Part shown: positions 3,986 through 39,176 of the stretch, in pieces
Position numbering within the stretch: position 1 is the stretch's first letter
Layout of the letters: each line of letters begins with the position of its first letter
Source of the DNA: a virus
Taxonomy: Duplodnaviria > Heunggongvirae > Uroviricota > Caudoviricetes
Direction: 5' to 3' (one strand)
IMG/VR virus record: IMGVR_UViG_2851982317_000005
DNA: 44,895 bases
Made by a program: the position numbers and the translations under genes
Notes under the pieces: generated by a model
The model's database searches: none
What the model was told of the DNA's origin: nothing
The model's input: the letters and a program-made list of their open reading frames with translations, nothing else

Positions 3986-4177
3986 TTAAAGACCTGCCGG
4001 GATTTCGTTATTATCCTGGTGAATAACTTTATCGACCGGGTAACAGTTACCGGGAATTTTCTGTTCGGTTGCTGCAGTCACACACTCCTGCATTGTCCTG
4101 TGAACACTGACTGCAATATCAACTGGCTCTCCGGAAACAAGAAAAACTGTCAGAACAAGTGCAAATGCTGTATTCAT
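3986..4177 (-). CDS. ydfD: YdfD-like small lysis/membrane protein (Qin family)
   Basis: 63-aa product MNTAFALVLTVFLVSGEPVDIAVSVHRTMQEC... with N-terminal hydrophobic segment; recalled similarity to Qin YdfD; start directly follows the dicB stop. Confidence 0.6.
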   Translation of the reverse strand: MNTAFALVLTVFLVSGEPVDIAVSVHRTMQECVTAATEQKIPGNCYPVDKVIHQDNNEIPAGL

Positions 4178-4362
4178 TGCCAGCATCCTTTTTGTATCGG
4201 ACGTAAACGGGCCAACATTGAAAGAATGCATATTTTATTTAATAGCTTCCGTTCGTGTTTTCTCTTGTTAATGGCATCTTCAGTAAATACAGGGTTACTG
4301 ATAGTGACACCAATTTCAAAACAACCTTCAGACGTATTAACGTTTGGTAATAACGTTTCCAT
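4174..4362 (-). CDS. dicB: Cell division inhibitor DicB
   Basis: 62-aa product METLLPNVNTSEGCFEIGVTISNPVFTEDAINKRK... matches recalled DicB sequence; located just downstream of DicF as in the Qin dicB operon. Confidence 0.75.
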   Translation of the reverse strand: METLLPNVNTSEGCFEIGVTISNPVFTEDAINKRKHERKLLNKICILSMLARLRPIQKGCWQ

Positions 4363-5435: not shown

Positions 5436-5616
5436 GCTGACCTCATTTCCCCTTAACGCCGGGGTAGCGGAACAAAAACCTGCTGCATAGTTATTAAAGT
5501 TGAACCCTGCCGTCATGTTCTTACGCCTCGGGCTGGCTACTTAACCCCTGACCACTGCCTGGTAACTCGAAGTATTGCCCTGCATTCTGTGGGGCGGGGT
5601 GGGTGGCAGGTATATA

Positions 5617-5657
5617 ATGTACTTTGTGTTCATTGTTGTAAAGTACATTTAGTACAT
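5617..5657. promoter_or_regulatory. Candidate left operator/promoter region with three ATGTACT/AGTACAT half-sites
   Basis: 7-mer ATGTACT at 5617-5623 and its reverse complement at 5642-5648 and 5651-5657, next to a TATAAT-like hexamer, between ydfA and the repressor gene. Confidence 0.4.
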
Positions 5658-5732
5658 TTTGTGTGTAAAAAAATGAGATGGGATAAAGTGAAGCACAAAC
5701 CCGGAGGAAGGCGCTACCGGATTTATGCTGGT

Positions 5733-6152
5733 TTAAGAGGCTTTTTGTTTTTTCTTTCGTGCTAACTCTTCGTAAATTGCATTGTACTTCTGTTTTTTCT
5801 CTTCAAGAGTTTTTAAAAGTTCATCTGTCTCACTGTCAGGGAGCTCGTCCAGAAGGTCAATGATGATTTTTTGTCTTGGATTTAACTCCTGATAGAAACG
5901 TACCTGTCCACTTTCTTCTGTGTCCTCTCCCAAAAGATAGGTTGGTGTTGTTCCTATTAGTGTTGCTAATTCCCTTAATTTCTCCCGGCGAGGAATTGTT
6001 TCGCCATTAAACCATTTGCTAACCGCTTTTGGTGTTAATTTCATTCGACGGGCAATTTCTGCCTGCCTTCCATGTTGTTCATAACCAGCGTTTTCACAGG
6101 CTAGCGCAAGCCTACTGGCGAACTCTTTACGCGCTTTATCTTCATGAACCAT
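5733..6152 (-). CDS. Prophage repressor, XRE-family helix-turn-helix (CI/RacR/DicA-like, no peptidase domain)
   Basis: 139-aa ORF with HTH-like segment (QAEIARRMKLTPKAVSKWFNGETIP); divergent from Cro-like gene. Confidence 0.7.
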   Translation of the reverse strand: MVHEDKARKEFASRLALACENAGYEQHGRQAEIARRMKLTPKAVSKWFNGETIPRREKLRELATLIGTTPTYLLGEDTEESGQVRFYQELNPRQKIIIDLLDELPDSETDELLKTLEEKKQKYNAIYEELARKKKQKAS

Positions 6153-6176
6153 AAGTTCAATGATATTCGCTCTTGA

Positions 6177-6207
6177 ATGTACTGTCAGTTCTGTTATAGC
6201 ATGTACT
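6177..6207. promoter_or_regulatory. Candidate right operator region: two direct ATGTACT repeats
   Basis: ATGTACT at 6177-6183 and 6201-6207 in the 80-bp divergent intergenic region; same 7-mer as the left-side sites. Confidence 0.4.
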
Positions 6208-6231
6208 CAAAGTTCACATTGTGAGGGTGAT

Positions 6232-6486
6232 ATGAACCAGAAAACACTTGAAGATGTAATCAAAACTGTTCGCGTTGCTGTTGTGGCCGACGTTTGTGGT
6301 GTCAGCCAAAGAGCAATCTATAAATGGATGGATAACGGAAAATTGCCTCGCACAGAATATACCGGCGAAACAAATTACGCTGAAAAAATCGCTCTTGCAT
6401 CAAACGGATTATTTTCTGCCGATGCAATTTTAACTATTGGCAGGAATAAAACTACTACGAAAAAGCTGATGGGAGTTGATTCATGA
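6232..6486 (+). CDS. Cro/YdaS-like small HTH regulator
   Basis: Start at internal Met MNQKTLEDVIKTV...; HTH-like VADVCGVSQRAIYKWMDNGKLP; divergent from repressor. Confidence 0.6.
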   Translation: MNQKTLEDVIKTVRVAVVADVCGVSQRAIYKWMDNGKLPRTEYTGETNYAEKIALASNGLFSADAILTIGRNKTTTKKLMGVDS

Positions 6487-6908
6487 AAATCAAGCATGAA
6501 CACATCCGCATGGCGATGAATGCCTGGGCGCATCCGGACGGCGAAAAAGTACCGGCTGCGAAAATTACCAAAGCGTATTTCGAGCTGGGAATGACGTTCC
6601 CGGAACTGTATGACGACAGCCATCCGGAAGCCCTGGCTCGCAATACTCAGAAAATTTTCCGCTGGGTGGAGAAAGACACCCCTGATGCGGTTAAAAAAAT
6701 TCAGGCGTTGTTACCAGCTATCGAAAAAGCAATGCCACCTCTGCTGGTGGCCCGAATGCGCAGTCATAGCTCAGCCTATTTTCGGGAACTAGTGGAGACG
6801 CGGGAACGACTGGTGAGAGACGCTGATGATTTTGTCGCAGTGGCGATCGCTGGTTTCAACCAGATGAATCGTGGTGGCCCTGCAGGAAATATTGTGGCTG
6901 TGCATTGA
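6483..6908 (+). CDS. YdaT-like protein (Rac-type regulatory/toxin-like module partner)
   Basis: 141-aa ORF beginning MKIKHEHI..., overlapping the Cro-like gene stop; size and position as Rac ydaT. Confidence 0.55.
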   Translation: MKIKHEHIRMAMNAWAHPDGEKVPAAKITKAYFELGMTFPELYDDSHPEALARNTQKIFRWVEKDTPDAVKKIQALLPAIEKAMPPLLVARMRSHSSAYFRELVETRERLVRDADDFVAVAIAGFNQMNRGGPAGNIVAVH

Positions 6909-6973
6909 CTCGCAATATTCATACCGGATCGCTTCCGGCAATTTGTGAGTAAAAAGATTCGGTATCAAAAGAG

Positions 6974-8050
6974 GTGAGTATGGCTAACGCCTGGCTCAGA
7001 TTATGGCATGACATGCCAAATGACCCTAAGTGGCGAACAATTGCCAGGGTGTCAGGGCAGCCAATTGCAACAGTGATGGCAGTGTATATCCACCTCCTGG
7101 TGAGCGCGTCACGAAATGTCACGCGAGGTCACATTGAGGTCACGACAGAAGATTTGGCAAGTGCGCTCGACGTGACAGAAGAGGTAATTGATTCAATTTT
7201 GCAGACGATGCAGGGGCGGGTACTTGATGGTGATTTAATCACTGGATGGGAAAAACGCCAGGTGCTTAAAGAGGACAACGGCAATATTTCGCAAACCGCA
7301 AAATCTCCTGCAGAGCGCAAGAGGGCGCAGCGAGAGAGGGAAAGAAAGCGGGAACAAAATGGCGATTGTCACGGCGCGTCACGAAATGTCACGCATATGT
7401 CACGACGAGTCACGACAGATAAAGATACAGATAAAGATACAGATCAAGAAGATCAAAACACTATGGTCCATGGCGTAAAAAACGCCACGAACCAGGCAGG
7501 GGATGTTCAGACCGTCAATCTTGGTCAGCCAGCAGGCACGACACCGGAAGCCGATTCAGCGTATGCGCTGAAAGCCGATTCGGGCGCTGTGCAGCAGGTG
7601 ATGACCGCAAGGCCGGAGCAATCACACCAACTGCAGCAGCCCGAAGCCGATTCCGCCATTCAGCGGGAAGCCGATCGGGTAGTCCCGGAAAACACCGGGC
7701 AGTCTGTGGGACGAGTGGATTATCCGGATGTGTTCGAACAGGTCTGGCGGGAGTACCCGTTGCGTGCCGGAGCAAACCCGAAGAAATCCGCTTTCAGTGC
7801 CTGGAAGGCCAGATTACGCGAGGGGGTGCCACCAGAGGCCATGCTGGATGGCGTGAGGCGTTACGCAAGATACTTGGCGGCTACCGGGAAAACGGGAACG
7901 GAATTTGTTCAGCGAGCGACGACGTTTTTTGGACCGGACCGGAATTTTGAGAACCCCTGGTTGCTCCCGGTAAGCGGCACGAACAACCAGCGTTGTGTGA
8001 ATCATATTTCTGAACCGGATAACGAAATTCCGCCGGGCTTCAGGGGGTAA
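6974..8050 (+). CDS. Replication initiator / replisome organizer (YdaU/O-like) containing internal iteron arrays
   Basis: 358-aa ORF; two clusters of GTCAC(G) repeats inside the coding sequence; C-terminal region typical of phage replication proteins. Confidence 0.55.
   Translation: MSMANAWLRLWHDMPNDPKWRTIARVSGQPIATVMAVYIHLLVSASRNVTRGHIEVTTEDLASALDVTEEVIDSILQTMQGRVLDGDLITGWEKRQVLKEDNGNISQTAKSPAERKRAQRERERKREQNGDCHGASRNVTHMSRRVTTDKDTDKDTDQEDQNTMVHGVKNATNQAGDVQTVNLGQPAGTTPEADSAYALKADSGAVQQVMTARPEQSHQLQQPEADSAIQREADRVVPENTGQSVGRVDYPDVFEQVWREYPLRAGANPKKSAFSAWKARLREGVPPEAMLDGVRRYARYLAATGKTGTEFVQRATTFFGPDRNFENPWLLPVSGTNNQRCVNHISEPDNEIPPGFRG
7106..7150. repeat. Iteron cluster 1 (four GTCAC motifs at about 10-11 bp spacing)
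   Basis: gcgtcacgaaatgtcacgcgaggtcacattgaggtcacgacag read directly. Confidence 0.6.
7365..7445. repeat. Iteron cluster 2 (five GTCACG motifs) plus AT-rich tandem repeat; candidate origin of replication
   Basis: ttgtcacggcgcgtcacgaaatgtcacgcatatgtcacgacgagtcacgacag followed by ataaagatacag x2; the 19-mer gcgtcacgaaatgtcacgc is shared with cluster 1. Confidence 0.6.
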
Positions 8051-8090
8051 GTGTTAATTTCTGGTCATGAGGTAATTTTCAGGAGGGCTT

Positions 8091-8513
8091 GTGGCAAAAG
8101 TTTTTACACAAGAAGAGCGGGAAAAAATTAAAGGGCAGGTTGTTGAACTCGTACGCCAAAGTGGGCGCGAGACGTTACGACAACTGGAAACTAAAACTGG
8201 GGCAACAAGATATCTGATGAGCGTTCTGGCCAGAGAGCTGGTTGCCAGTGGCGATGTATACAACTCTGGTTACGGGTTATTCCCGTCTGAACAGGCGCGT
8301 AAGGACTGGCAAAATGCCCGTAAAAAGCTCTCAAGGGCAAAGCCGAAGAAACCATCTGCGGTTGATCCGGACCTAATCTGGTCATTACCAGACGGAGAAA
8401 TACGCCGCTACGACAGGCGCCTGAATATAATCTGTCGCGAGTGCCGGAAGAGCGAAGCTATGCAGCGTGTACTGGCTTTCTATCAGGGTAATTTTCAGGA
8501 GGCGGTACTGTGA
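8091..8513 (+). CDS. Hypothetical protein, replication/nin-region
   Basis: 140-aa ORF with plausible composition; no Walker A motif, so not a DnaC-like helicase loader. Confidence 0.4.
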   Translation: MAKVFTQEEREKIKGQVVELVRQSGRETLRQLETKTGATRYLMSVLARELVASGDVYNSGYGLFPSEQARKDWQNARKKLSRAKPKKPSAVDPDLIWSLPDGEIRRYDRRLNIICRECRKSEAMQRVLAFYQGNFQEAVL

Positions 8514-8632
8514 GTGAAATTAGCTATCAGGCTTCAATTGCCGCTGGCATTCGCATCAAAGGAGAGGAGCATGGAAATAAAACCAGAGGATTAGTTAAGC
8601 AATATCGTTTTATTTCCGATAAAAGAGGATGA
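8510..8632 (+). CDS. Small hypothetical protein (MSEISYQ...), possible 5' part of a frameshifted gene
   Basis: GTG-start 40-codon ORF; N-terminus paralogous to the ORF at 9369 (MSEINYQ); a downstream zinc-ribbon ORF in another frame lacks a start codon. Confidence 0.25.
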   Translation: MSEISYQASIAAGIRIKGEEHGNKTRGLVKQYRFISDKRG

Positions 8633-9020
8633 CCCTCGTAATCAGGTTAATTTTCTTTATGAGCCATCGGAAAGACCATATTGCCATCACGCTTCTGTCC
8701 GGGTTGACGAAAAAGAGCGTCAGGTCCGCTGTAAAATCTGCGGTGCAGTTGTGGAGCCATTTGACTGGATGCTCTCTGTGGCGAAAAGAGAAACCAGACT
8801 GGCAGATGATGTAAGGCTCTTGCGCCAGGAGGAACGGGAAAGGCGAAAAAATACAGAAAAGCTAATTCAGATTGAGCGTAACGGGAAAGCGTGGATACGC
8901 AGGGTGACAAAATCCAAAACTGAATAATTAAATTTAGCACTGTTAAAAATTTAATCCTTAACCGGAGGGATTTCTGCACCCTCAGAACAGCAGGAGGCCA
9001 CCCGAAAGGGCGGTAGTGAA

Positions 9021-9372: not shown

Positions 9373-9656
9373 GCGAGATTAATTATCAGGAAGGGTATGA
9401 AACGGCGGAGCAAGCAAAACCAGTGGCATGGCGATATCGCTACGTGAAAAAAGGCGTTACGGACTTTCAGGAGAAGTAGTGGTCTGTTGACTGGAAATAT
9501 GTACCGAAAAAAGAGGATTGTAACGACAGGCCGAACTATCAAATTCAGGCCTTATTCACTGCCTCACCAGCCCTGGTTACATCAGAAGAACTGGTTAAAG
9601 CTGTGCACTTTTATGAACAACTAAAACGCGAAAATCCACCAACATCCGGCAACTAG
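9369..9656 (+). pseudogene. Small nin-region ORF interrupted by an in-frame amber (TAG) codon at 9477-9479
   Basis: Codon-by-codon reading: MSEINYQ...DFQEK-TAG-WSVDWKYVPKKED...PPTSGN continues in the same frame for 59 more codons. Confidence 0.4.
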
Positions 9657-9867
9657 ATTAATGGGTTAACTATGTCGGTTAAACGACCAGCCAACTGAAA
9701 AAGCGGAAACCTGATTATAGGTTGCCAGATAAGGCAATAAGCTACCTGGCGCGGAACGGACTGATAAGTATGGGGAGTGTTTTACGATGAACCTTTAGAC
9801 TAAAGAGTTTGTAAGTAACCGGCTCATTTAAACCGTCTGGTCTGTTTCCTCCGGCTCTACAAAAATA

Positions 9868-10545
9868 ATGTCCATCATTTTTAATGGACACTATCGTATG
9901 AAACACCGGACCTGGATCACTGAAGCTTTACGTCTTCACTTTGAAGAACATTTACCCCGGGTTGTGGCCGGGCGTCGCCTGGGTGTACCAAAATCAACAG
10001 TTTGTAGTATGTTCGTGCGCTTTCGGAGAGCTGGCCTTTCGTGGCCTTTGCCCGCAGGCATGTCGGAGCAGGAACTTGATGCCTGCCTTTACGGACAATT
10101 TTCCACGGTACCAGTCGTACGTCCTGAAAGCACCGTTATATCCGAAGCCCCCGTGGTAAAAAAACGTCCCCGGCGGCCCAACTTCCCTTATGAGTTTAAA
10201 ATCGCCTTAGTGGAGCAGTCACTGCAGCCCGGAGCCTGTGTGGCGCAGATCGCCCGGGAAAACGGAATCAACGATAACCTGCTCTTCAACTGGCGCCATC
10301 AATACCGGAAAGGTGGCCTGCTGCCTTCCGGAAAAAATATGCCGGCACTGCTTCCCGTGACGTTAACGCCGGAGCCGGATAATAAAATCCCGGCCCCCGC
10401 ACAGGAACCAGAGCAGATAAATACACCGTCCGACAGTCTGTGTTGTGAGCTGGTTCTGCCGGCCGGAACTCTCAGGCTTAAAGGTAAACTGACGCCGGCG
10501 TTATTACAGACACTTATCCGCGAAATAAAAGGGAGCAGCCACTGA
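9868..10545 (+). CDS. tnpA: IS66-family accessory protein TnpA (orfA)
   Basis: Contains the conserved YEFKIALVEQSLQPGACVAQIARENGINDNLLFNWRHQY HTH region; ORF start may be N-terminally extended. Confidence 0.75.
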   Translation: MSIIFNGHYRMKHRTWITEALRLHFEEHLPRVVAGRRLGVPKSTVCSMFVRFRRAGLSWPLPAGMSEQELDACLYGQFSTVPVVRPESTVISEAPVVKKRPRRPNFPYEFKIALVEQSLQPGACVAQIARENGINDNLLFNWRHQYRKGGLLPSGKNMPALLPVTLTPEPDNKIPAPAQEPEQINTPSDSLCCELVLPAGTLRLKGKLTPALLQTLIREIKGSSH

Positions 10546-10892
10546 TGATATCTCTCCCTGCAGGTTCGCGTATCTGGCTGGTTGCAGGTATCACCGATAT
10601 GCGAAATGGCTTTAACGGCCTGGCATCAAAAGTTCAGAACGTCCTGAAGGATGACCCGTTCTCCGGACACCTGTTCATCTTCCGCGGACGCCGGGGTGAC
10701 CAGATAAAAGTGTTGTGGGCTGACAGTGACGGACTGTGCCTCTTCACCAAACGCCTGGAGCGGGGCCGCTTCGTCTGGCCAGTCACCCGTGACGGCAAGG
10801 TGCACCTTACTCCGGCTCAGTTATCCATGCTTCTTGAAGGTATCAACTGGAAGCACCCGAAACGAACGGAACGCGCTGGAATCCGCATATAA
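10545..10892 (+). CDS. tnpB: IS66-family TnpB (orfB)
   Basis: 115-aa ORF MISLPAGSRIWLVAGITDMRNGFNGL... typical IS66 Orf2; overlaps orfA stop. Confidence 0.85.
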   Translation: MISLPAGSRIWLVAGITDMRNGFNGLASKVQNVLKDDPFSGHLFIFRGRRGDQIKVLWADSDGLCLFTKRLERGRFVWPVTRDGKVHLTPAQLSMLLEGINWKHPKRTERAGIRI

Positions 10893-10911
10893 CCCGTTGT
10901 AAAGTGAGGAT

Positions 10912-12483
10912 ATGGACACCTCACTTGCTCATGAGAACGCCCGCCTGCGGGCACTGTTGCAGACGCAACAGGACACCATACGCCAGATGGCTGAATACAA
11001 CCGCCTGCTCTCACAGCGGGTGGCGGCTTATGCTTCTGAAATCAACCGGCTGAAGGCGCTGGTTGCGAAACTGCAGCGTATGCAGTTCGGTAAAAGCTCA
11101 GAAAAACTTCGTGCAAAAACCGAACGGCAGATACAGGAAGCACAGGAGCGAATCAGCGCACTTCAGGAAGAAATGGCGGAAACGCTGGGTGAGCAATATG
11201 ACCCGGTACTGCCATCCGCCCTGCGCCAGTCTTCAGCCCGTAAACCGTTACCGGCCTCACTTCCCCGTGAAACCCGGGTTATCCGGCCGGAAGAGGAATG
11301 CTGTCCTGCCTGTGGTGGTGAACTCAGTTCTCTGGGATGTGATGTGTCAGAGCAACTGGAGCTTATCAGCAGCGCCTTTAAGGTTATTGAAACACAACGT
11401 CCGAAACAGGCCTGTTGCCGGTGCGACCATATCGTGCAGGCACCAGTACCTTCAAAACCCATTGCACGCAGTTATGCCGGAGCGGGGCTTCTGGCCCATG
11501 TTGTCACCGGGAAATATGCAGACCATCTGCCGTTATACCGCCAGTCAGAAATATACCGTCGTCAGGGAGTGGAGCTGAGCCGTGCCACACTGGGGCGCTG
11601 GACAGGTGCTGTTGCTGAACTGCTGGAGCCGCTGTATGACGTCCTGCGCCAGTATGTGCTGATGCCCGGTAAAGTCCATGCTGATGATATCCCCGTCCCG
11701 GTCCAGGAGCCGGGCAGCGGTAAAACCCGGACAGCCCGGCTGTGGGTCTACGTCCGTGATGACCGTAACGCCGGTTCACAGATGCCCCCGGCGGTCTGGT
11801 TCGCGTACAGTCCGGACCGGAAAGGTATCCATCCACAAAATCACCTGGCCGGTTACAGCGGTGTGCTTCAGGCCGATGCTTACGGTGGTTACCGGGCGTT
11901 ATACGAATCCGGCAGAATAACGGAAGCCGCGTGTATGGCTCATGCCCGGAGAAAAATCCACGATGTGCATGCAAGAGCGCCCACCTACATCACCACGGAA
12001 GCCCTGCAGCGTATCGGTGAACTGTATGCCATCGAGGCAGAGGTCCGGGGCTGTTCAGCAGAACAGCGTCTGGCGGCAAGAAAAGCCAGAGCCGCGCCAC
12101 TGATGCAGTCACTGTATGACTGGATACAGCAACAGATGAAAACACTGTCGCGTCACTCAGATACGGCAAAAGCGTTCGCATACCTGCTGAAACAGTGGGA
12201 TGCACTGAACGTGTACTGCAGTAATGGCTGGGTGGAAATCGACAACAACATCGCAGAGAACGCCTTACGGGGAGTGGCCGTAGGCCGGAAAAACTGGATG
12301 TTCGCGGGTTCCGACAGCGGTGGTGAACATGCGGCGGTGTTGTACTCGCTGATCGGCACATGCCGTCTGAACAATGTGGAGCCAGAAAAGTGGCTGCGTT
12401 ACGTCATTGAACATATCCAGGACTGGCCGGCAAACCGGGTACGCGATCTGTTGCCCTGGAAAGTTGATCTGAGCTCTCAGTAA
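10912..12483 (+). CDS. tnpC: IS66-family transposase (orfC)
   Basis: 523-aa ORF with N-terminal coiled-coil/leucine zipper, CxxC zinc-finger region and DDE-type core typical of IS66 transposases. Confidence 0.85.
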
Positions 12484-12617
12484 ATATCAATACGGTTCTG
12501 ACGAGTCGCTTACGTTTGTAACGCTATGTAAGTGATTTTTTCTAGTTTAGATATTTATATGTCCGGCCAAATTGAGGTGTGTTTAAATGTAATTGCACAT
12601 TGATTGTAGGAGGAATA

Positions 12618-12797
12618 ATGAAAAACGCATTGCAGTTTTTGTTTGTTGCGTTCTGGTTGTTCGTATCATGTATGCCCATCATCTTCACAGCAAGGTATAT
12701 GGAAAAAGTTGATGTTTTGATATTAATATTTGGATATATAAATGCCCTTTTTTTAGGGGTGTTCATGGCGGTCATGTGCATTGAATACTGGCGGTAA
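12618..12797 (+). CDS. Small hydrophobic membrane protein (59 aa, two predicted TM segments)
   Basis: AGGAGG ribosome-binding site 6 nt upstream of ATG; product MKNALQFLFVAFWLFVSCMPIIF...LFLGVFMAVMCIEYWR. Confidence 0.45.
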   Translation: MKNALQFLFVAFWLFVSCMPIIFTARYMEKVDVLILIFGYINALFLGVFMAVMCIEYWR

Positions 12798-15380: not shown

Positions 15381-16202
15381 ATGAAACTGGAAGATTTACC
15401 GAAATACTACTCCCCAAAATCCCCTGGCCTGACCGATGCATCGGCCTCAACGTCAAAAGATGCGCTGAGTATCACTGATGTGATGGCCGCGCAGGGCATG
15501 ACACAGAATCGGGCTGAGATGGGTTTTTCTGCGTTCCTGGGGAAAATGGGCATCAGTATGAATGACAGGGCGCGGGCAACAGAATTACTGGCAGATTATG
15601 CACTCAGTCGGTGCGATCGTGTGGCGGCGTTGAGAAAACTTCCGGCAGAAATAAAACCGGTAGTGATGCGCATTATGGCTTCGTACGCTTTTGAGGATTA
15701 TGCCCGTAGCGCAGCGAGTAAAAAGCAGTGCCCTTGTTGCTATGGGGAAAAATTTATTGAAAGCGTAGTTTTTACAAACAAGGTCCAGTATCCGGATGGT
15801 AAGCCGCCGGTATGGGCAAAGTGTACGAAAGGTGTGTATTCGTCTTACTGGGAAGAATGGAAAAAAGTCAGGGAGGTGGTAAAAGTTGCCTGTCCGGAGT
15901 GTGGCGGAAAGGGTGAGGTTTCCACCGCCTGTAAGGATTGCCGTGGGCGTGGTGTCGCCATTCATCGTGAAGAGTCGGTAAAACGTGGTATGCCTGTTAT
16001 CAGAGACTGCCAGCGTTGTGGTGGTCGTGGCTATGAAAGACTACCATCAACGGAGGCATTTAATGCTATATGCGAGGTGACAAACCAGATAACACGCGCG
16101 TCATGGGAAAAAACAGTTAAGAAATTCTATGATGCGCTGGTGACCCGGTTTGATATTGAAGAAGCATGGGCTGAGCGGCAGTTAAAAAAGGTAACTAGGT
16201 AA
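15381..16202 (+). CDS. Late-gene antiterminator Q-like protein
   Basis: 273-aa ORF with repeated CxxCxGxG zinc-finger motifs, immediately upstream of a promoter-like sequence, a short-transcript terminator, tRNAs and the lysis cassette. Confidence 0.6.
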   Translation: MKLEDLPKYYSPKSPGLTDASASTSKDALSITDVMAAQGMTQNRAEMGFSAFLGKMGISMNDRARATELLADYALSRCDRVAALRKLPAEIKPVVMRIMASYAFEDYARSAASKKQCPCCYGEKFIESVVFTNKVQYPDGKPPVWAKCTKGVYSSYWEEWKKVREVVKVACPECGGKGEVSTACKDCRGRGVAIHREESVKRGMPVIRDCQRCGGRGYERLPSTEAFNAICEVTNQITRASWEKTVKKFYDALVTRFDIEEAWAERQLKKVTR

Positions 16203-19235: not shown

Positions 19236-19769
19236 ATGAACGCAAAAATCAGATACGGCCTGTCGGCTGCCGTTCTGGCACTGATTGCCGTCGGTGCGCC
19301 CGCGCCTGATATTCTCGACCAGTTTCTGGATGAAAAAGAAGGTAACCACACAACGGCATACCGCGATGGGTCCGGCATCTGGACCATCTGTCGGGGTGCC
19401 ACGATGGTGGATGGAAAACCCGTTTTTCCCGGTATGAAACTGTCGAAGGAAAAATGCGACCAGGTCAACGCCATTGAGCGTGATAAGGCGCTGGCATGGG
19501 TGGAGCGCAATATTAAAGTACTACTGACCGAACCACAAAAAGCGGGTATAGCGTCATTCTGTCCCTATAACATTGGCCCCGGTAAGTGTTTCCCGTCGAC
19601 GTTTTATAAGCGGCTGAATGCCGGTGATCGTAAGGGCGCATGCGAGGCGATTCGCTGGTGGATAAAAGATGGTGGGCGCGATTGCCGCATACGTTCAAAT
19701 AACTGCTATGGACAGGTTATTCGTCGTGACCAGGAAAGCGCATTAGCCTGTTGGGGGATAGAGCAGTGA
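19236..19769 (+). CDS. SAR endolysin (lysozyme, glycoside hydrolase family 24; phage 21 R-like)
   Basis: N-terminal signal-anchor-release segment [24 protein letters not shown] followed by the T4-lysozyme-like motif [22 protein letters not shown]. Confidence 0.85.
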
Positions 19770-20227
19770 GCAGAGTCGCCGCGATTATTTATGCTTTGGT
19801 TATCTGCATCATCGTCTGCCTGTCGTGGGCGGTCAATCATTACCGTGATAACGCCATCGCCTACAAAGAACAGCGTGATAAAAAAGTCAGTGAGCTGAAG
19901 CAGTCGATCGCCACCATCGCTGACATGCAGCAGCGTCAGCGTGATGTTGCTGCACTCGATGCAAAGTACTCGAGAGAATTAGCCAATGCGAAAGCTGAAA
20001 ATGAAACTCTGCGCGCTGATGTTGCCGCTGGTCGTCGTCGGTTGCACATCAAAGCAGTCTGTCAGTCAGTGCGTGAAGCCACCACCGCCTCCGGCGTGGA
20101 TAATGCAACCAGCCCCCGACTGGCAGACACCGCTGAACGGGATTATTTCACCCTCAGAGAGAGGCTGATCACTATGCAAAAACAACTGGAAGGAACCCAG
20201 AAGTATATTAATGAGCAGTGCAGATAG
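19766..20227 (+). CDS. Rz i-spanin
   Basis: N-terminal TM segment then coiled-coil periplasmic domain; overlaps the endolysin stop; start GTG 19766 or TTG 19751. Confidence 0.75.
19986..20168 (+). CDS. Rz1 o-spanin (lipoprotein embedded in Rz in the +1 frame)
   Basis: Lipobox LVVVGC and proline-rich mature region ([18 protein letters not shown]), wholly inside Rz. Confidence 0.75.
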
Positions 20228-25795: not shown

Positions 25796-27013
25796 ATGAA
25801 ACTTCATGAGATGAAGCAAAAACGAAACACCATTGCAAAGGATATGCGTGCACTGCATGAAAAAATTGGTGATAACGCATGGACTGATGAGCAACGGGCA
25901 GAGTGGAACAGGGCGAAAGCTGAGCTGGATGCGCTGGATGAGCAAATCGCCCGTGAAGAAGAGTTGCGCCGTCAGGATCAGGCATATGTGGATGAGTCCG
26001 GGCCGGAAGAGCGCCAGAATAATGAGGCGGAGAACGGGAAAAAGGCGGTGGAAGAGAAGCGCGCTGCGGCATTTAACCGTTTTCTGCGTGCCGGATTTGC
26101 AGAACTGAATGCTGAAGAGCGTAATCTGATGCGTGAACTGCGGGCTCAGAGTGTAACAACGGATTCTCAGGGCGGATATACGGTGCCCACGCAGATGCGT
26201 AACAAAATCATTGACACCATGAAGGCTTATGGCGGGATTGCCAGTGTGGCGCAACTTCTGACCACATCAACCGGGCAGGATATCACCTGGTCAACGTCTG
26301 ATGGCACGACTGAAGAGGGCGAACTGCTGGCGGAGAATACAGCCGCAACGGAACAGGATGTGACGTTCGGGACCGCTATTCTGGGGGCTAAAAAGCTGTC
26401 ATCAAAAATAATTCGTGTGTCCAATGAGCTGCTCCAGGACAGTGGGGTGGATATTGAATCTTATCTGGCAAACCGTATTGCCCAGCGTATTGGTCGTGGA
26501 GAGGCAAAATATCTGGTTCAGGGGACCGGAACGGGATCACCGTTACAGCCAAAAGGGCTGGCAGCGTCGGTGACGGGAACCATCCAGACTGCAGCCTCTG
26601 CCGCTTTCACCTGGAAAGAAATGAATGCCCTGAAACATGCTATTGATCCGGCATATCGTGGTGGGCCGAAATACCGCTGGGCATTCAATGATGCCACATT
26701 GCAGACTATTGAAGAGATGGAGGATGGACAGAAACGCCCGTTATGGCTGCCGGATATTGCAGGCGGTACGCCGGCTACTGTGCTGGGGATCCCTTATGTT
26801 ATTGATCAGGCTATTGACGGGATTGGTACCGGAAAAAAATTCATTTTCCTGGGGGATTTCAACCGCTTTATTATTCGCCGCGTTACTTATATGGAACTGA
26901 AACGTCTGGTTGAGCGTTATGCTGAGTTTGATCAGGTGGCATTTCTGGCTTTCCATCGTTTTGACTGTGTGCTGGAAGATGTGGCAGCCATCAAGGCGCT
27001 CACTGGCAAATAA
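25796..27013 (+). CDS. Major capsid protein (HK97 fold) with N-terminal coiled-coil delta domain
   Basis: 405-aa ORF; charged coiled-coil N-terminus then capsid-like body; followed by a strong terminator. Confidence 0.85.
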   Translation: MKLHEMKQKRNTIAKDMRALHEKIGDNAWTDEQRAEWNRAKAELDALDEQIAREEELRRQDQAYVDESGPEERQNNEAENGKKAVEEKRAAAFNRFLRAGFAELNAEERNLMRELRAQSVTTDSQGGYTVPTQMRNKIIDTMKAYGGIASVAQLLTTSTGQDITWSTSDGTTEEGELLAENTAATEQDVTFGTAILGAKKLSSKIIRVSNELLQDSGVDIESYLANRIAQRIGRGEAKYLVQGTGTGSPLQPKGLAASVTGTIQTAASAAFTWKEMNALKHAIDPAYRGGPKYRWAFNDATLQTIEEMEDGQKRPLWLPDIAGGTPATVLGIPYVIDQAIDGIGTGKKFIFLGDFNRFIIRRVTYMELKRLVERYAEFDQVAFLAFHRFDCVLEDVAAIKALTGK

Positions 27014-27034
27014 CCACTCGTTGTTCAGTTACAG

Positions 27035-27057
27035 ACCGCGCCGACGCGGTTTTTTTA
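27035..27057 (+). terminator. Rho-independent terminator after capsid gene
   Basis: accgcgccgacgcggt hairpin followed by TTTTTTT. Confidence 0.6.
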
Positions 27058-27089
27058 TGCCCGCACAGTGTTGCGGGCAGGAGTTTCTG

Positions 27090-27407
27090 ATGGCAGCAAT
27101 AGTGGAAAAACTCAGGGCGCAGTGCCGTATTGATACAGATGATGCAACTGATGATGAGTTACTGATGCTGTATTTCCGGGCTGCCTGCCGCAAGGCAGAA
27201 AATTTTATCAACCGTAAGCTTTATGAGGAGACGGTGCCGGAAGGTGATCCTGAAGGGGTGCTTATAGCTGATGATGTTTTGCTGGCGCTCATGTTGCTGG
27301 TCGGGCACTGGCACGAAAACCGGGAAAATTCCTCAGATGTCAGCAAGGCACCAGTCCCGTTTGGTTTTTCTTCTCTGCTGGAGCCTTATCGTTTTATTCC
27401 TTTGTAG
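27090..27407 (+). CDS. Head-tail connector protein (gp6-like)
   Basis: Small ORF directly after the capsid gene; start at ATG 27090 (MAAIVEKLRAQ...). Confidence 0.6.
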   Translation: MAAIVEKLRAQCRIDTDDATDDELLMLYFRAACRKAENFINRKLYEETVPEGDPEGVLIADDVLLALMLLVGHWHENRENSSDVSKAPVPFGFSSLLEPYRFIPL

Positions 27408-27415
27408 GAGGAGAG

Positions 27416-27754
27416 ATGCAGGCGGGCAGATTACGTGATCGCGTAATTATTCTGAATGTCACCACCGCCCGCTCTCCGTCAGGGCATCCGGTGGAGACGG
27501 TGACGGAGGGAGCTACCGTATGGGCAGAAGTTAAGGGTATCAGCGGGAGGGAGATAATCTCAGGCGGAGCAGAAACCGCTCAGGCTACGGTCAGAGTCTG
27601 GATGAGATTCCGGCGCGATGTGACAGCGACTTCACGTCTGAAAGTGCTGACCGGTGCATTTAAAGGGGCCATTCTGGGTATAGAAGGTCCACCAATACCG
27701 GATGCACGCGCTACCCGGCTTGAAATACTCTGCAGCCTGAAGGGGAATGTGTGA
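27416..27754 (+). CDS. Head-tail adaptor / head closure protein
   Basis: 112-aa ORF with AGGAGG ribosome-binding site; conserved position. Confidence 0.6.
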   Translation: MQAGRLRDRVIILNVTTARSPSGHPVETVTEGATVWAEVKGISGREIISGGAETAQATVRVWMRFRRDVTATSRLKVLTGAFKGAILGIEGPPIPDARATRLEILCSLKGNV

Positions 27755-28200
27755 TGGATTTCAGTCTTGATTTTTCCGGCCTGGCGGATATTGCACGGGA
27801 TTTGGAGACGCTCAGCAGGGCAGAAAACAATAAGGTTCTGCGCGATGCCACCCGTGCCGGTGCTGAAGTTATGCGGGATGCAGTTGTTGAACGTGCGCCG
27901 GAGCGAACCGGGAAACTGAAGAAAAATGTGGTTGTTCTCACTCAGCGTTCAAAGCGTCGGGGGGAAATTATCTCGGGTGTCCACATTCGCGGACGGAACC
28001 TGCGAACCGGAAACAGTGATAACAGCATGAAAGCCAGCGATCCCCGAAATGCATTTTACTGGCGCTTTGTGGAGCTGGGAACGATAAACATGCCCGCGCA
28101 TCCATTCATTCGCCCGGCTTTCGATACGACAGAGGAGCTGGCGGCGCAGGTTGCCATACAGCGAATGAATCAGGCTATTGATGAGGTCTTAAGTAAATGA
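27751..28200 (+). CDS. Tail component (HK97 gp10-like)
   Basis: 149-aa ORF overlapping its neighbours by 4 nt. Confidence 0.55.
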   Translation: MMDFSLDFSGLADIARDLETLSRAENNKVLRDATRAGAEVMRDAVVERAPERTGKLKKNVVVLTQRSKRRGEIISGVHIRGRNLRTGNSDNSMKASDPRNAFYWRFVELGTINMPAHPFIRPAFDTTEELAAQVAIQRMNQAIDEVLSK

Positions 28201-28541
28201 GGGAGGCCACACTGTATTCCCTGTTGTCTCAGCTGGCCGGAGGACAGGTTTATCCTTATGTGGTCCCGCTGACGGAGGGAAAGCCTGCGGTATCTCCGCC
28301 GTGGCTGGTGTTTTCTGTGGTGTCTGACACGGCATCTGATGTGCTTGATGGGCAGGCTGAATCCAGAATTACCGTGCAGATCGATGTCTGGGCGACAGTA
28401 CCTGATGACGCAGATAATATTCGTGAGCAGGCGCTTGATGCGGTAAGGAAACTGGCACCCTCCGTTATTTCTAAAACGCAGGGTTATGATCCTGATTCCC
28501 GTCTGAGCAGAGCCACGCTTGAATTTCAGGTAATAGCCTGA
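28197..28541 (+). CDS. Tail completion/terminator-like protein (gp11/DUF3168-like)
   Basis: 114-aa ORF immediately upstream of the major tail gene. Confidence 0.5.
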   Translation: MREATLYSLLSQLAGGQVYPYVVPLTEGKPAVSPPWLVFSVVSDTASDVLDGQAESRITVQIDVWATVPDDADNIREQALDAVRKLAPSVISKTQGYDPDSRLSRATLEFQVIA

Positions 28542-28557
28542 GGTCGTTAATGATTTT

Positions 28558-28584
28558 ACCCACCCGCCGCTGGCGGGTTTTTTA
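28558..28584 (+). terminator. Hairpin plus T-run upstream of major tail gene
   Basis: cccacccgccgctggcgggt followed by TTTTTT. Confidence 0.5.
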
Positions 28585-28600
28585 TTTTCAGGAGACGAGT

Positions 28601-29305
28601 ATGTCCTCTAATTTTGAGCGTTCGCAACTGACGAAAATTATGATTTCGTCTGCACCGGTAACAGCAGAAACCCTGGATTCTGCCAGCTATCTTGGCCTGA
28701 GCTGTACAATCAAAGAAGTGCAGTTTACCGCTGGACAAAAGCAGGATATTGATGTCACCACGCTGTGTTCTGTTGAGCAGGAAAATATTAACGGTCTTGG
28801 TGCCGCGTCAGAGATTTCCATGTCAGGCAACTTTTACCTCAATGCTGCCCAGAATGCGTTGCGCAGTGCCTATGACAATGACACCACGTATGGCTTTAAA
28901 GTTATTTTTCCGTCAGGCAACGGATTTACCTTTATGGCAGAAGTGCGTCAGCATACCTGGTCTGCAGGAACCAATGGTGTTGTGGCTGTAACGTTTTCCC
29001 TGCGTCTGAAAGGCAAACCTGTGCTGACGACAGCTTCGCTGAAAGTGAAGGTTGATTTAAAAAGCACGCTGCGGGTTGCTTCCGGAGCGAAACTTGAAAT
29101 GGCGGTTGAGGCTGCGGGTGGTGTGCCGCCTTATTCTTATGTCTGGAAGAAAGGTGGTTCTCCTGTTTCCGGACAGACGGCGGCAACGTTCAGTAAGGCA
29201 TCAGCATCATCCGGTGATGCGGGTGCGTATACCTGCGAGATTTCTGATTCAGCGAGCCCGGTTAACAAAGTGACCTCCACTTCCTGCACTGTAACCGTCA
29301 GTTAA
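28601..29305 (+). CDS. Major tail protein with C-terminal Ig-like domain
   Basis: Start at ATG 28601 with GGAGACGAG ribosome-binding site; C-terminal segment (GGVPPYSYVWKKGGSPVSGQTAATF...GAYTCEISD) has the pattern of an Ig-like domain. Confidence 0.75.
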   Translation: MSSNFERSQLTKIMISSAPVTAETLDSASYLGLSCTIKEVQFTAGQKQDIDVTTLCSVEQENINGLGAASEISMSGNFYLNAAQNALRSAYDNDTTYGFKVIFPSGNGFTFMAEVRQHTWSAGTNGVVAVTFSLRLKGKPVLTTASLKVKVDLKSTLRVASGAKLEMAVEAAGGVPPYSYVWKKGGSPVSGQTAATFSKASASSGDAGAYTCEISDSASPVNKVTSTSCTVTVS

Positions 29306-30033: not shown

Positions 30034-33000
30034 ATGAGTGTGGCGACATTACGTGAACTGATTATTAAAATCTCGGCAAATTCCCGGTCATTCCAGTCAG
30101 AGATCTCCCGGGCTTCGCGTATGGGGCAGGATTACTACCGTACCATGCAGAACGGAGGCCGGCAGTCCGCTGCTGCATCCCGTGAAATGCGGCGTGCACT
30201 GGCAGAAGTGACGGATCAGATAAATACAGCTAAATCTTCGGCACTGAATATGGCGGGGGCATTTGCCGGGGCTTTTGCTACCGGTCATCTTATTTCTCTC
30301 GCCGATGAGTGGAATTCAGTAAATGCCCGTCTGAAGCAGGCCTCACAGTCCAGTGATGATTTTCAGGTATCACAACGTGAATTAATGGCGATCAGCCAGA
30401 GAACGGGGACGGCGTTTTCTGATAACGCCAGGCTTTTTGCCCGTTCTGCAGCTTCCATGCGGGAGTATGGTTACAGTTCTGAGGAGGTACTGAAAGTCAC
30501 CGAGGCGATCTCCACGGGCCTGAAATTATCCGGTGCCAGTACAGCAGAAGCCAGTTCGGTGATCACGCAGTTCAGTCAGGCACTGGCGCAGGGAGTGCTG
30601 CGCGGTGAAGAGTTTAACTCGGTGAATGAGAGCGGTGATCGTGTTATTCGTGCGCTGGCTGCGGGAATGGGCGTTGCCCGTAAGGATCTGAAGGCCATGG
30701 CGGATAACGGAAAACTAACCGCCGATAAGGTTGTTCCTGCACTGATTAGTCAGCTTGGGGCGTTGCGTGATGAATATGCAGCAATGCCTGATACGGTTTC
30801 ATCCTCTGCAACCAAAGTTGAAAACGCCTTTATGGCCTGGGTTGGTGGTGCGAACGAGGCAAGCGGAGTGACGAAGACGCTCTCCGGGGTGCTGAATGGT
30901 CTTGCAGGCAATATTGATACCGTGGCAACCGCTGCCAGTGCTCTGGTTGCCGTCGGGGTAGCCCGATATTTTGGCAATATGGCGTCTTCTGCTGGATCTG
31001 CAACTGCCGGATTAATTACTGCAGCCAGAAACGAAGTGGCTCTTGCTGAAGCGCAACTTCGGGGGACACAGATAGCAACCGCCAGGGCGCGTGCGGCGGT
31101 TTATCGTGCGCAACAGGCGGTTGTTGCTGCTCGCGGTACCGAAAGGCAGGCCGCAGCAGAAGCGAAGCTGACAGCTGCTCAGGCGTCACTTACCCGTAAT
31201 ATTGCGGCCAGAACAGCGGCACAGACAACGCTGAATACTGTCACGTCAGTGGGGAGTCGTCTGTTAAGTGGTGCGCTGGGGTTGGTTGGTGGTGTGCCGG
31301 GACTCGTCATGCTGGGGGCGACGGCCTGGTACACGATGTATCAGAATCAGGAGCAGGCCAGAGAATCTGCACGCCAGTATACCGCAACAATCGACGAAAT
31401 TCGCCAGAAAACGTCGGCAATGTCGCTTCCTGAAGCGTCAGATAATGAGGAAAAGACGCGGCAGGCACTTGATGAGCAAAACAGGTTAATTGACGAGCAG
31501 AAAAGTAAGATTAAATCCTTACAGGAAAAAATTGCTGGCTATCAGTATGTGCTGGCAAACCAGGGCTGGACAACCGATAACGGTTTTATGATTAACCACA
31601 TGACGTCGGTAAAAACTGTCACAGAAGGGCTTGCAGAAGCAACAAATCAACTGGCAGTTGAACAGTCCCGTCTCACACAAATGCAGGGCAAAGCGCAATC
31701 CATTCAGGATGTGCTTGCCGGGCTGGAGGAGCGACGGGTGGCGTTGATCCGTCAACAGGCCGCGGAACAAAACAAAGCGTATCAGTCCCTGTTGATCATG
31801 AATGGGCAGCATACCGAGTTTAATCGCCTTCTCGGGCTCGGTAATGAATTACTTCAGCAGCGACAGGGGCTGGTGAATGTACCGTTACGGCTACCACAGG
31901 CAACCCTGGATGATAAACAGCAGACTGCACTGAATAACAGCGAGCGCGAACTGGCTCTGTCCCGCCTGAAGGGGGAAGCCCGTGAGCGTGCCCGCCTGGG
32001 TTATGCTGCGGATGATCTCGGCTTTGTGGGAGAGGCGTATCAGACAGCCAGACAGAATTATATCAATAACTCACTGGATGCCTGGCGAAATAACCAGGCA
32101 AATAAACCCAAAGCGCATAAAAAGACCGAAGCGGAAAAAACAGAAGATATTTATAAACGGCTGATTAAACAGCAAAAAGAACAAATAGCACTGGCAGGGC
32201 AGAATACTGAACTGGCTAAGATGAAATATCAGGTCAGTCAGGGCGAATTATCAACCCTGTCAGAAGCGCAGAAAAAAACGCTTTTGCAGAATGCAGCACT
32301 CATCGACCAGAAAAAGATTCGTGAGCAGCTTGCTGCGTATGAAAGCAGCCTGGCGGACAGTAATGCCAGTGCCCGGGCATCTGACGACGCGCAGTTACTG
32401 GGATATGGTGAAGGCTCACGGATGCGTGAACGACTCCAGGAAATGTGGAGTATCCGGCATGAGTTTGAGCAGAAAAATAACGAGCTGCTGAGACAGTATC
32501 AGGCCGGAGAAATTGAAGAAGCCCTGTGGAAACAGGAGAAAGAACTGAATAAAAAATATCTGGAAGAGCGTCTCAGCGATCAGCAGGATTATTATGCAAA
32601 GGCCGATGCTTTACGTAATAACTGGAATGCAGGACTCCAGGAGGGGCTGACCAACTGGGCAGACAGTGCCACCGATTATGCTTCGCAGGCGGCAGATGCT
32701 GTCGTTTCCACTATGGACGGACTGGTATCAAATATTTCCGATGCACTGGCCGGAAATGTTGTGGACTGGAGAAACTGGGGGAGTTCAGTTCTCCGGGAAG
32801 TTTCAAAAATTCTGATGAATGCGGCCATTGTTAACGGACTGAAGTCACTCTCCGGTGCCGGAGGGTGGCTTGGTACGGTCGGCGGATGGATTTCGGGGGC
32901 GGTGGCAAACGCAAAAGGTGGTGTTTACACATCGGCAAATCTGAGTGCTTACAGTAACACTATTGTGGATACACCGACGTATTTTGCTTTTGCGAAAGGT

Positions 33001-33267
33001 GCCGGGCTGATGGGCGAGGCCGGGCCTGAAGCTATCATGCCACTGACACGGGCAGCGGACGGCTCTCTTGGGGTCAGAGCCATTGGCAATGTGAATAGTG
33101 GCGGGGGGGGTGTTTATTCTCCCGTGTATCACATCAGCATTCAGAATCAAGGGAGCAATGGCGAGATAGATGCGCGCTCAGCCAGGGGACTGGTGGATCT
33201 GATCGACAGCAGGGTTGTGTCAATTATGCAGTCATCGCGTCGGGATGGAGGATTGTACAGTGCCTGA
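30034..33267 (+). CDS. Tail tape measure protein
   Basis: 1077-aa ORF, Ala/Gln-rich and coiled-coil, downstream of G/GT. Confidence 0.9.
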   Translation: MSVATLRELIIKISANSRSFQSEISRASRMGQDYYRTMQNGGRQSAAASREMRRALAEVTDQINTAKSSALNMAGAFAGAFATGHLISLADEWNSVNARLKQASQSSDDFQVSQRELMAISQRTGTAFSDNARLFARSAASMREYGYSSEEVLKVTEAISTGLKLSGASTAEASSVITQFSQALAQGVLRGEEFNSVNESGDRVIRALAAGMGVARKDLKAMADNGKLTADKVVPALISQLGALRDEYAAMPDTVSSSATKVENAFMAWVGGANEASGVTKTLSGVLNGLAGNIDTVATAASALVAVGVARYFGNMASSAGSATAGLITAARNEVALAEAQLRGTQIATARARAAVYRAQQAVVAARGTERQAAAEAKLTAAQASLTRNIAARTAAQTTLNTVTSVGSRLLSGALGLVGGVPGLVMLGATAWYTMYQNQEQARESARQYTATIDEIRQKTSAMSLPEASDNEEKTRQALDEQNRLIDEQKSKIKSLQEKIAGYQYVLANQGWTTDNGFMINHMTSVKTVTEGLAEATNQLAVEQSRLTQMQGKAQSIQDVLAGLEERRVALIRQQAAEQNKAYQSLLIMNGQHTEFNRLLGLGNELLQQRQGLVNVPLRLPQATLDDKQQTALNNSERELALSRLKGEARERARLGYAADDLGFVGEAYQTARQNYINNSLDAWRNNQANKPKAHKKTEAEKTEDIYKRLIKQQKEQIALAGQNTELAKMKYQVSQGELSTLSEAQKKTLLQNAALIDQKKIREQLAAYESSLADSNASARASDDAQLLGYGEGSRMRERLQEMWSIRHEFEQKNNELLRQYQAGEIEEALWKQEKELNKKYLEERLSDQQDYYAKADALRNNWNAGLQEGLTNWADSATDYASQAADAVVSTMDGLVSNISDALAGNVVDWRNWGSSVLREVSKILMNAAIVNGLKSLSGAGGWLGTVGGWISGAVANAKGGVYTSANLSAYSNTIVDTPTYFAFAKGAGLMGEAGPEAIMPLTRAADGSLGVRAIGNVNSGGGGVYSPVYHISIQNQGSNGEIDARSARGLVDLIDSRVVSIMQSSRRDGGLYSA

Positions 33268-33601
33268 GCCTGAAGTTTTTAACTGGATCCCCCGTGAGGG
33301 GATGGAGACGACACGAAAGCCATCAGTTATTACGGTAAAGTTTGGTGACGGATATGAACAGCGACGGGCTGGTGGTCTGAATGCGGATCTGAAAACGTTT
33401 AAACCGGTATTTCGTGTCACAGATGAATATTCCCGTGCCGCGCTGGACAGTTTTTTATCCCGTCATGCCGGGATTCGTGCTTTTTTGTGGCGTCCGCCAA
33501 AACACAACAGGACTGTCCGGGTTGTCTGCAGGGAGTGGAGCATTTCGGATAATGCCATGTATACCGATTTTAACTGTACCTTTGAAGAGGTCACTCACTG
33601 A
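33260..33601 (+). CDS. Minor tail protein M
   Basis: Lambda tail gene order; GTG start overlapping the tape measure stop (alternative ATG at 33302). Confidence 0.7.
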   Translation: MPEPEVFNWIPREGMETTRKPSVITVKFGDGYEQRRAGGLNADLKTFKPVFRVTDEYSRAALDSFLSRHAGIRAFLWRPPKHNRTVRVVCREWSISDNAMYTDFNCTFEEVTH

Positions 33602-34299: not shown

Positions 34300-34303
34300 T
34301 CCC

Positions 34304-39132: not shown

Positions 39133-39151
39133 ATTTTATAACCCAGATACG

Positions 39152-39176
39152 GGCGCCAGAAATGGCGCCTTTTTTA
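39152..39176 (+). terminator. Rho-independent terminator after J
   Basis: ggcgccagaaatggcgcc followed by TTTTTT. Confidence 0.55.

Follow-up and report, generated by a model that had tools for sequence, protein, structure and literature searches.

Two hexamer arrays within the reading frame of a replication initiator gene mark a probable origin of a lambdoid prophage

The DNA analysed here, a stretch of 44,895 nt referred to below as the window (IMG/VR record IMGVR_UViG_2851982317_000005), carries a lambdoid prophage with a replication initiator gene at 6980..8050 (+ strand), and within that gene lie two arrays of GTCAC(G) hexamers, an AT-rich repeat and a hairpin. Region 7104-7494, which spans these elements, is probably the vegetative replication origin of the prophage, lying within the frame that encodes the prophage's initiator. 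The first-pass annotation of the window had placed a candidate origin in the initiator gene, and this placement is supported by the position of the gene, by frozen codons at the repeats, by concerted change of the repeat cores and by a conserved AT-rich run beside them. That the repeats are functional DNA elements is close to certain; that they form an origin bound by the initiator is likely, judging from comparison of related loci.

Results

Two arrays of hexamers in the initiator gene

Iteron array 1 (7104..7149, + strand) consists of four direct GTCAC(G/A) cores, with GTCACG at 7108, 7118 and 7139 and GTCACA at 7128, and iteron array 2 (7365..7414, + strand) consists of five direct GTCACG cores, at 7368, 7378, 7388, 7399 and 7409. 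All copies of the two clusters reported in the first-pass annotation were therefore located, along with their helical-turn periodicity; spacing between cores is 10/10/11 bp in array 1 and 10/10/11/10 bp in array 2, or about one helical turn. Of the 53 GTCAC sites on the + strand of the 44.9-kb window, nine are crowded into 321 nt, for which 0.32 would be expected (Poisson 7e-11), and density reaches a maximum of 5 per 50 nt, compared with a maximum of 3 in 300 shuffles of the window. A 19-mer had been described as exactly repeated. The true exact repeat is longer, comprising 21 nt (GCGCGTCACGAAATGTCACGC) at 7104 and 7374, and its offset of 270 nt is in frame, yielding the peptide ASRNVT twice, as had also been claimed. 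A single inverted GTCACG (7171..7176, - strand) is found 27 bp after array 1, in codons D64-V65-T66 (GAC GTG ACA). The three frames of GTCACG translate as V-T, x-H-x and S-R, and the peptide encoded by array 1, ASRNVTRGHIEVT (aa 42-57), is simply four cores translated.

No other iteron-like array was found in a scan of the window, the remaining tandem arrays all lying in coding repeats. No DnaA boxes with one mismatch or fewer were found in 6000-9000, and a scan of 5600-8700 for promoters and terminators returned a count no higher than in shuffles. The sequence TATATCCACC at 7085-7094 was considered as a DnaA-type site and dropped, synonymous sites there not being conserved.

Selection on the arrays at the DNA level

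Relatives were scanned using one genome per species, giving 51 loci, about 35 of which have the N-terminal domain of the window's initiator (WLRLWHDMPNDPKWRTI...). Hosts of this domain include Serratia, Rahnella, Pseudomonas, Bordetella, Aquitalea, Chromobacterium, Acidovorax, Gilvimarinus and Sphingomonas, among others. Some 40 relatives, drawn from Gamma-, Beta- and Alphaproteobacteria, have the arrays at the same codons, and GTCAC occurs at the exact offsets of the window's open reading frame (ORF) in about 20 species (129, 139, 149 and 160, then around 387-430).

Codon use was compared in 19 species in which the first 100 codons align without gaps. Among the hexamer codons of array 1, GTC, ACG and GGT were each used in 19/19 species and CAC in 18/18, and the further hexamer codons were similarly fixed (GTC 19/19, ACG 18/19, TCA 18/19 and GCG 17/19). 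Spacer codons 45, 49, 52 and 56 vary freely among the same species, and 37 other columns with conserved residues use three to six synonymous codons each. Hexamer codons have a mean top-codon fraction of 0.92, versus 0.53 for other conserved residues (Mann-Whitney p = 2e-5). Since the hexamer codons are frozen, a purely protein-level explanation is ruled out.

The core found in array 2 is always that of array 1 in the same locus. GTCACG is the core in most loci; a second class has GTAACG (L020, L025, L031, L033, L054, L055, L057 and L060) and a third has CGAACGC (L028, L030, L032 and L036). Comparison of L024 with its close relatives L020 and L025 reveals a change of C to A in every copy of both arrays. 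Each array holds 3-6 copies of its core, compared with 0.3-1.7 per kb per strand in the flanks; extra cores have been gained at both arrays in P0003, L002 and L059, and insertions in array 1 add cores. Core spacing in 24 loci (192 cores) was 10 bp 106 times and 11 bp 33 times, with flanking bases only weakly conserved. Since GTAACG read as xxG TAA contains a stop codon, class-B arrays use only the VT and xN frames, and the coding frame thus limits the pattern of 10- and 11-bp spacing that is permitted. The inverted copy is present as GTGAC at ORF nt 193 in most class-A relatives, and third-position identity at codon 65 is 0.84, compared with a typical value of about 0.5. An E. coli variant, P0019, is missing both array 2 and the AT-rich repeat, and its origin is probably dead.

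The AT-rich element and the hairpin

Array 2 is followed immediately by a candidate DNA-unwinding element (DUE; 7415..7462), which comprises ACAGATAAAGAT x2.9 (7415-7449) and an A-rich tail and encodes DKDTDKDTDQEDQN. The AT-rich tandem repeat that had been reported next to the second cluster was recovered here with Tandem Repeats Finder. Segment 7415-7449 has the lowest stability of any 30-bp duplex in the ORF (dG -32 kcal/mol versus a mean of -42.6, sd 3.2), and for instability it ranks at the 99th percentile of the window. Array 2 leads directly into AGATAAAGATAAAGA or something very like it, coding for DKDKD or DTDTD, in nearly all relatives, and a AGATAAAGATAAAGA-like run is kept in hosts of 61-69% GC as well (L010, L016, L017 and L018). 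A AGATAAAGA run stands directly 3′ of array 2 across hosts of 34-69% GC. The AT fraction of the run after array 2 is 0.61-0.89 in the relatives, compared with 0.32-0.63 for the whole ORF.

A hairpin, or inverted repeat, with 13-bp arms (TGGTCCATGGCGT-AAAAA-ACGCCACGAACCA; 7464..7494) begins 14 nt to the right of the AT-rich repeat. Folded as single-stranded DNA and compared with shuffles, it gave z = -4.6 on the - strand, where 0/200 shuffles were as good, and -2.8 on the + strand. On the - strand it looks like a terminator, after which comes the unwinding element's T-rich complement. The comparison took in eight orthologues that share one C-domain, namely the window and L054-L060, whose proteins are 47-79% identical. 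The hairpin core CATGGCGAAAAAAnCGCCA is invariant in 7/8; the window reads CATGGCGTAAAAAACGCCA, departing from the frozen CATGGCGAAAAAAnCGCCA by one base (GCGTAAAAAA). At codons 164-169, all orthologues in which the residue is retained use the same codon for it (7/7 or 8/8), with a top-codon fraction of 0.93 versus 0.63 for 108 other conserved columns, and the outer stem varies by lineage yet remains complementary. The hairpin is probably the origin's third cis element. In relatives whose C-domain is of another kind, a CCCCC...GGGGG inverted repeat (peptide PPLTPP..G) occupies the hairpin's position to the right of the AT-rich element; it lies at about nt 440-480 of the ORF in L005, L007, L010 and L014 and at 4450-4490 of L053.

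The initiator protein and its C-terminal tail

The initiator is a protein of 356 aa, named 'phage replisome organizer', with its ATG at 6980 and AGAGGTGA just upstream. It matches PHROG 3729 'replication initiation protein' over its full length (E 2e-257, with residues 1-356 aligned to profile positions 1-356), whereas Pfam assigned it to no family. 'Phage replisome organizer' is its NCBI name in many genomes, and the Prokaryotic Genome Annotation Pipeline often calls it 'hypothetical protein', as in E. coli F5505-C1. An AlphaFold2 model was built on an alignment of 35 sequences. The N-terminal domain, aa 1-126 (6980..7357, + strand), is the presumed iteron-binding part; its helical core, aa 1-80, was modelled with a predicted local distance difference test score (pLDDT) of 70-84 and is probably a winged helix. 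Array 1 encodes the last part of helix 3 and a loop (pLDDT <50) that is the indel hotspot of the family. A basic helix, aa 110-126, encodes no DNA element. Residues 127-243 form a disordered linker (pLDDT ~30) in which array 2 (aa 130-145), the AT-rich repeat and the hairpin are encoded, together occupying aa 130-172. Both the loop and the linker tolerate a peptide sequence dictated by the DNA. Further along, the linker contains a 36-nt direct repeat (7544-7579 and 7640-7675, 75% identical, 96 nt apart), and 324-aa variants common in E. coli (P0004 and others) are without exactly 32 linker codons, as a deletion between the 36-nt repeats predicts.

A C-terminal helical domain, aa 245-332 (7712..7975, + strand; pLDDT 80-94; PHROG 18526 and 1701), is followed by a tail, aa 333-356 (...QRCVNHISEPDNEIPPGFRG; 7976..8047, + strand), that matches the extreme C-terminus of the host primosomal protein DnaT. 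A phmmer search of the PDB gave 6aep at E 0.0027 as well as 2ru8 and 9zbt_D, all matching tail residues only, and the tail aligned with positions 156-179 of the NCBIfam DnaT model NF002770 at E 7e-4. Against 6aep_A, 12/13 residues are identical and the motif ..SEPD..IPPGFRG is present; the ending ..IPxGFRG is conserved in orthologues. Wider similarity to DnaT was sought and discarded, since a PDB profile search matched the terminal 24 residues and nothing in the helical C-domain. The domain with which DnaT binds single-stranded DNA, a bundle of three helices (PF17948), had no match in the initiator. A genuine DnaT domain (PF17948) is found in sister initiators that share the N-domain, and a lambda-P-like loader follows them.

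Helicase loader genes in the window and in relatives

The first-pass annotation had reported that no DnaC/P-like loader follows the initiator. This holds for the whole prophage, in which no dnaB-, dnaC- or P-like gene was found besides the istB of IS21. That istB is the window's only DnaC-like ATPase and belongs to the insertion sequence, not to the replication module. Among relatives with the N-domain, downstream neighbours often overlap the stop codon of the initiator; because automated classing of downstream genes under-called such overlapping genes, it was used only alongside Pfam results and gene calls. The gene directly downstream is lambda-P-like in L002, L003, L005, L028 and L058, DnaC/IstB-like in L016, L017, L025, L033, L054-57, L059 and L060, DnaB in L019 and L031, and a primase-helicase in L012, L013 and L053. 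This arrangement is the classic initiator-loader or initiator-helicase module of the Weigel and Seitz classification, as cited in PMC9144972.

Absence of a loader is specific to the window's lineage. Its close orthologues (47-79% identical) carry a DnaC-like gene, and an E. coli orthologue as similar as 76% (P0022/L059) still does; the window's lineage has lost the gene. Phage Tritos, a deposited genome of 46 kb, has the same loader-less module as its sole replication gene.

The N-domain with its arrays has been joined to several C-domains, and the window's C-domain to at least three other N-domains. At about 24 loci with the core of the window's C-domain, the adjacent gene is DnaC/IstB-like in 16, a primase-helicase in 2 and P-like in 2, with none in 4, and only 4 of about 30 loci with the same N-domain and another C-domain have a DnaC-like gene. 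It was considered that the DnaT-like tail tracks DnaC-like loaders, and this was dropped when L038-L047 and L051, which share the C-domain core and have a different tail, were seen to have DnaC-like genes too. Since DnaC-like genes occur without the tail, the association lies with the C-domain, and the tail is an extra. The simplest inference from this pairing is that the C-domain works with host DnaC, and the window's lineage probably uses host DnaC and DnaB.

Gene and prophage context

A prophage of E. coli O25:H16 F5505-C1 matches the window at 100% identity, and there the initiator is annotated at 36851-37921 of L052. Around the initiator the gene order is repressor (5733-6152, - strand), a cro-like gene, a YdaT/cII-like gene (6483-6908), the initiator and a DUF977 gene (8091-8513). 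The rest of the prophage is also lambdoid, with integrase, excisionase, exonuclease and dicB, and with RusA, Q, lysis, head and tail genes further on. The 140-aa product of the DUF977 gene (8091..8513, + strand) had been listed as an unknown that is not a loader. The second part of that description stands, as the gene is neither a helicase loader nor part of the origin, and the first is superseded by homology searches that place it as DUF977 (Pfam PF06163, E 2e-29), named 'LygF' or, in PHROG 142, 'Ren-like exclusion protein'. It comes after the replication genes as ren comes after P in lambda, and in L002 it follows a P-like loader.

At least 80% of the module formed by the initiator and DUF977 is present in 1540/5426 complete E. 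coli genomes, roughly a quarter, and in seven deposited phage genomes. The initiator N-domain is found in only 25 phage records.

The prophage bears several defects, namely IS21 (9472-11438), IS66 (26565-29180) and frameshifted tape-measure and J genes (32168-35394 and 37781-41259). Its cargo includes, in the annotation of the identical RefSeq locus, tRNA-Ile and tRNA-Arg (15768-15843 and 15944-16017, - strand), and also the serum-survival gene iss (19681-19974), the hokD toxin gene (12477-12632) and dicB (4174-4362) with ydfA-D nearby. About five tandem 21-nt units (74-77% matches) at 2260-2366 on the - strand, inside a large RecE-like exonuclease gene, probably encode a repetitive protein linker.

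Discussion

The arrangement of region 7104-7494 suggests a series of events in which the initiator N-domain would first bind the GTCACG cores, of which array 1 offers four together with an inverted copy and array 2 offers five. Since the cores are direct and one helical turn apart, all of them would be on the same face of the DNA. Oligomers on the two arrays, about 260 bp apart, would probably loop or wrap the DNA between them, and the resulting strain would open the adjacent AT-rich repeat at 7415-7462. The C-domain and the DnaT-like tail would then bring host DnaC-DnaB to the opened strands, host proteins being proposed because the lineage is without a loader gene of its own, and the hairpin at 7464-7494 would mark the right edge of the opened region. 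We infer the identity of the core binder, the looping, the melting and the use of host DnaC from the features described above. A more specific version is a two-part, self-encoded and loader-less origin, in which the initiator bridges both arrays, loops out the ~260 bp between them, melts the AT-rich repeat and, with its C-domain and a tail that mimics DnaT, captures either host DnaC-DnaB or the PriA primosome, perhaps at the hairpin; with array 1 written into a surface loop of the DNA-binding domain, each switch in iteron specificity would then rewrite part of the initiator itself. As a complete scheme this is speculative and rather unlikely. DnaT is thought to recruit DnaB/DnaC (PMC13377028). 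A role for the tail is hypothetical, because how DnaT does so is unknown (PMC13377028; PMC4132743).

Several points weigh against assigning the origin to this region. Conservation shows that the arrays function and does not tell in what way; array 1 could be a control site. No paper on the initiator family or its origin was found in a literature search, and no experiment for any of its members. The search for small replicons that depend on the initiator found only large plasmids bearing prophages and circular Pseudomonas phage genomes of 51 kb, and there is thus no independent proof of autonomous replication. Residues of the N-domain that track the iteron class amounted to a mere hint in the basic helix region (aa 100-126), and those that read the hexamer were not found. 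The codon bias of the AT-rich stretch in relatives (GAT:GAC for Asp 91:2 versus 333:335 elsewhere; AAA:AAG for Lys 86:13 versus 291:229 elsewhere) comes from a test that is partly circular, because it was run on each gene's most AT-rich window; the non-circular part is the placement of that window, directly after array 2 in 29/33 genes. The function of the tail within DnaT itself is not established (PMC13377028, PMC4132743). Finally, the prophage is defective, so that the origin may no longer be in use here.

The main rival explanation is that the arrays, or at least array 1, are regulatory sites at which the initiator controls its own expression or limits copy number by 'handcuffing', as with P1 incA or the Vibrio chromosome II 39-mers, leaving an origin made of array 2 and the AT-rich element. 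Two separated sets of iterons with different roles are common in iteron plasmids. Vibrio chromosome II is a case in point (PMC3401445). Array 1 has no AT-rich element and is followed by ordinary coding sequence, and conservation alone does not separate a control role from an origin. However, array 2 adjoins a conserved unwinding element, which is the signature of an origin, a lytic phage origin hardly needs negative copy control, and the arrays lie 130-430 nt inside the gene, a poor position for an operator, with no convincing promoter there. Control by these sites is accordingly judged improbable.

It is considerably less probable still that the hexamers bind some other protein, such as a host factor, repressor, Cro or cII, or a partition or packaging protein, in a process unrelated to initiation. 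L014 does have a gene for a ParB helix-turn-helix protein downstream. Yet close relatives in similar hosts differ in their core, and this speaks against a conserved host factor; the arrays accompany the N-domain through varied immunity, morphogenesis, C-domain and loader contexts, and the adjoining AT-rich element together with the helicase and loader genes points to initiation. Hardly any weight is left for the repeats being chance, or a by-product of protein-level duplication (ASRNVT twice) without DNA function: the 21-mer is exact and in frame, the outcome expected of a recent duplication or gene conversion, but the clustering is far beyond chance, synonymous positions in the hexamers stay fixed across 19 species whose spacers drift, and the peptide follows the frames of GTCACG (VT, xH, SR), shifting whenever the core shifts.

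An origin within the initiator gene has precedents in phage. In lambda, a palindrome lies to the right of the AT-rich region. Four iterons and a 38-bp AT-rich stretch make up ori-lambda inside O (PMC3349717), and oriL of SPP1, inside gene 38, consists of AB boxes bound by G38P and an adjacent AT-rich DUE (PMC5737612). The window shares with ori-lambda the location of the origin inside the initiator gene, between a DNA-binding N-domain and a loader-recruiting C-domain; repeats that bind the initiator, or in the window would do so, and are followed directly by an AT-rich stretch; a gene that comes after cro and cII in a lambdoid early-right operon; and exchange of N- and C-domains as modules. 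The two differ in that lambda has one array of four 18-19-bp iterons with an internal dyad, whereas in the window 6-bp direct cores recur every 10-11 bp in two arrays, one of which falls inside the folded N-domain, and these two arrays co-evolve. Lambda also has its own loader, P, whereas the window's lineage has no phage loader. The first-pass annotation had likened the region to the iteron and unwinding-element origin of lambda O; the comparative evidence supports this likeness as one of design, and it does not extend to homology, as the initiator had no match to Pfam Phage_rep_O even at E <= 10. Labels such as 'DNA replication protein O' in phage records are positional names.

With G38P of SPP1 the initiator shares the NCBI name 'replisome organizer' and a weak, sub-threshold N-terminal similarity to Phage_rep_org_N, scoring 12.7 bits against a cut-off of 23.3 for PF09681 and 14.1 against 49.8 for TIGR01714. 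Since the alignment covers the whole model (5-122 to 1-118), remote kinship is possible. SPP1 differs in that it encodes a loader (G39P) and a helicase (G40P) of its own and has a distant second G38P site (oriR), and its repeats are unrelated. The likeness to DnaT is confined to the last 24 residues of the initiator (SEPDNEIPPGFRG versus SEPDNHIPPGFRG or SEPDSQIPPGFRG), and DnaT acts at forks through PriA and PriB rather than at a sequence-specific origin. P4 (ori and crr) and iteron plasmids (P1 incC and incA, R6K) have two separated sets of the same repeat that serve one initiator by looping or pairing. Their sets are kilobases apart or flank rep, and are non-coding, whereas both sets in the window lie within 310 bp of coding sequence. 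Of the features that characterize origins built from iterons and a DUE, the repeat array within the ORF, the adjacent melting segment, and DNA-level selection with concerted change are all found here. A loader or helicase gene as the next gene is absent from the window; it is present in most relatives and is not an absolute requirement.

The design is thus one known in lambdoid phage, and what is new is an uncharacterised, widespread family with a two-array layout. The arrays provide a ready-made cis element for annotation, for origin prediction and for phage-derived replicons, and they show clearly how signals in the DNA restrict which codons are used and even what peptide is made. Their natural specificity classes (GTCACG, GTAACG and CGAACGC) would allow the joint change of initiator and site to be studied where both are locked in one frame. 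A testable lead on how DnaB/DnaC are recruited without DnaA, a question stated as open for DnaT (PMC13377028), comes from the tail that resembles DnaT and from the C-domain's pairing with DnaC-type loaders. If the loader-less two-part scheme were true, these phage proteins would point to the surface of DnaT that recruits DnaB/DnaC.

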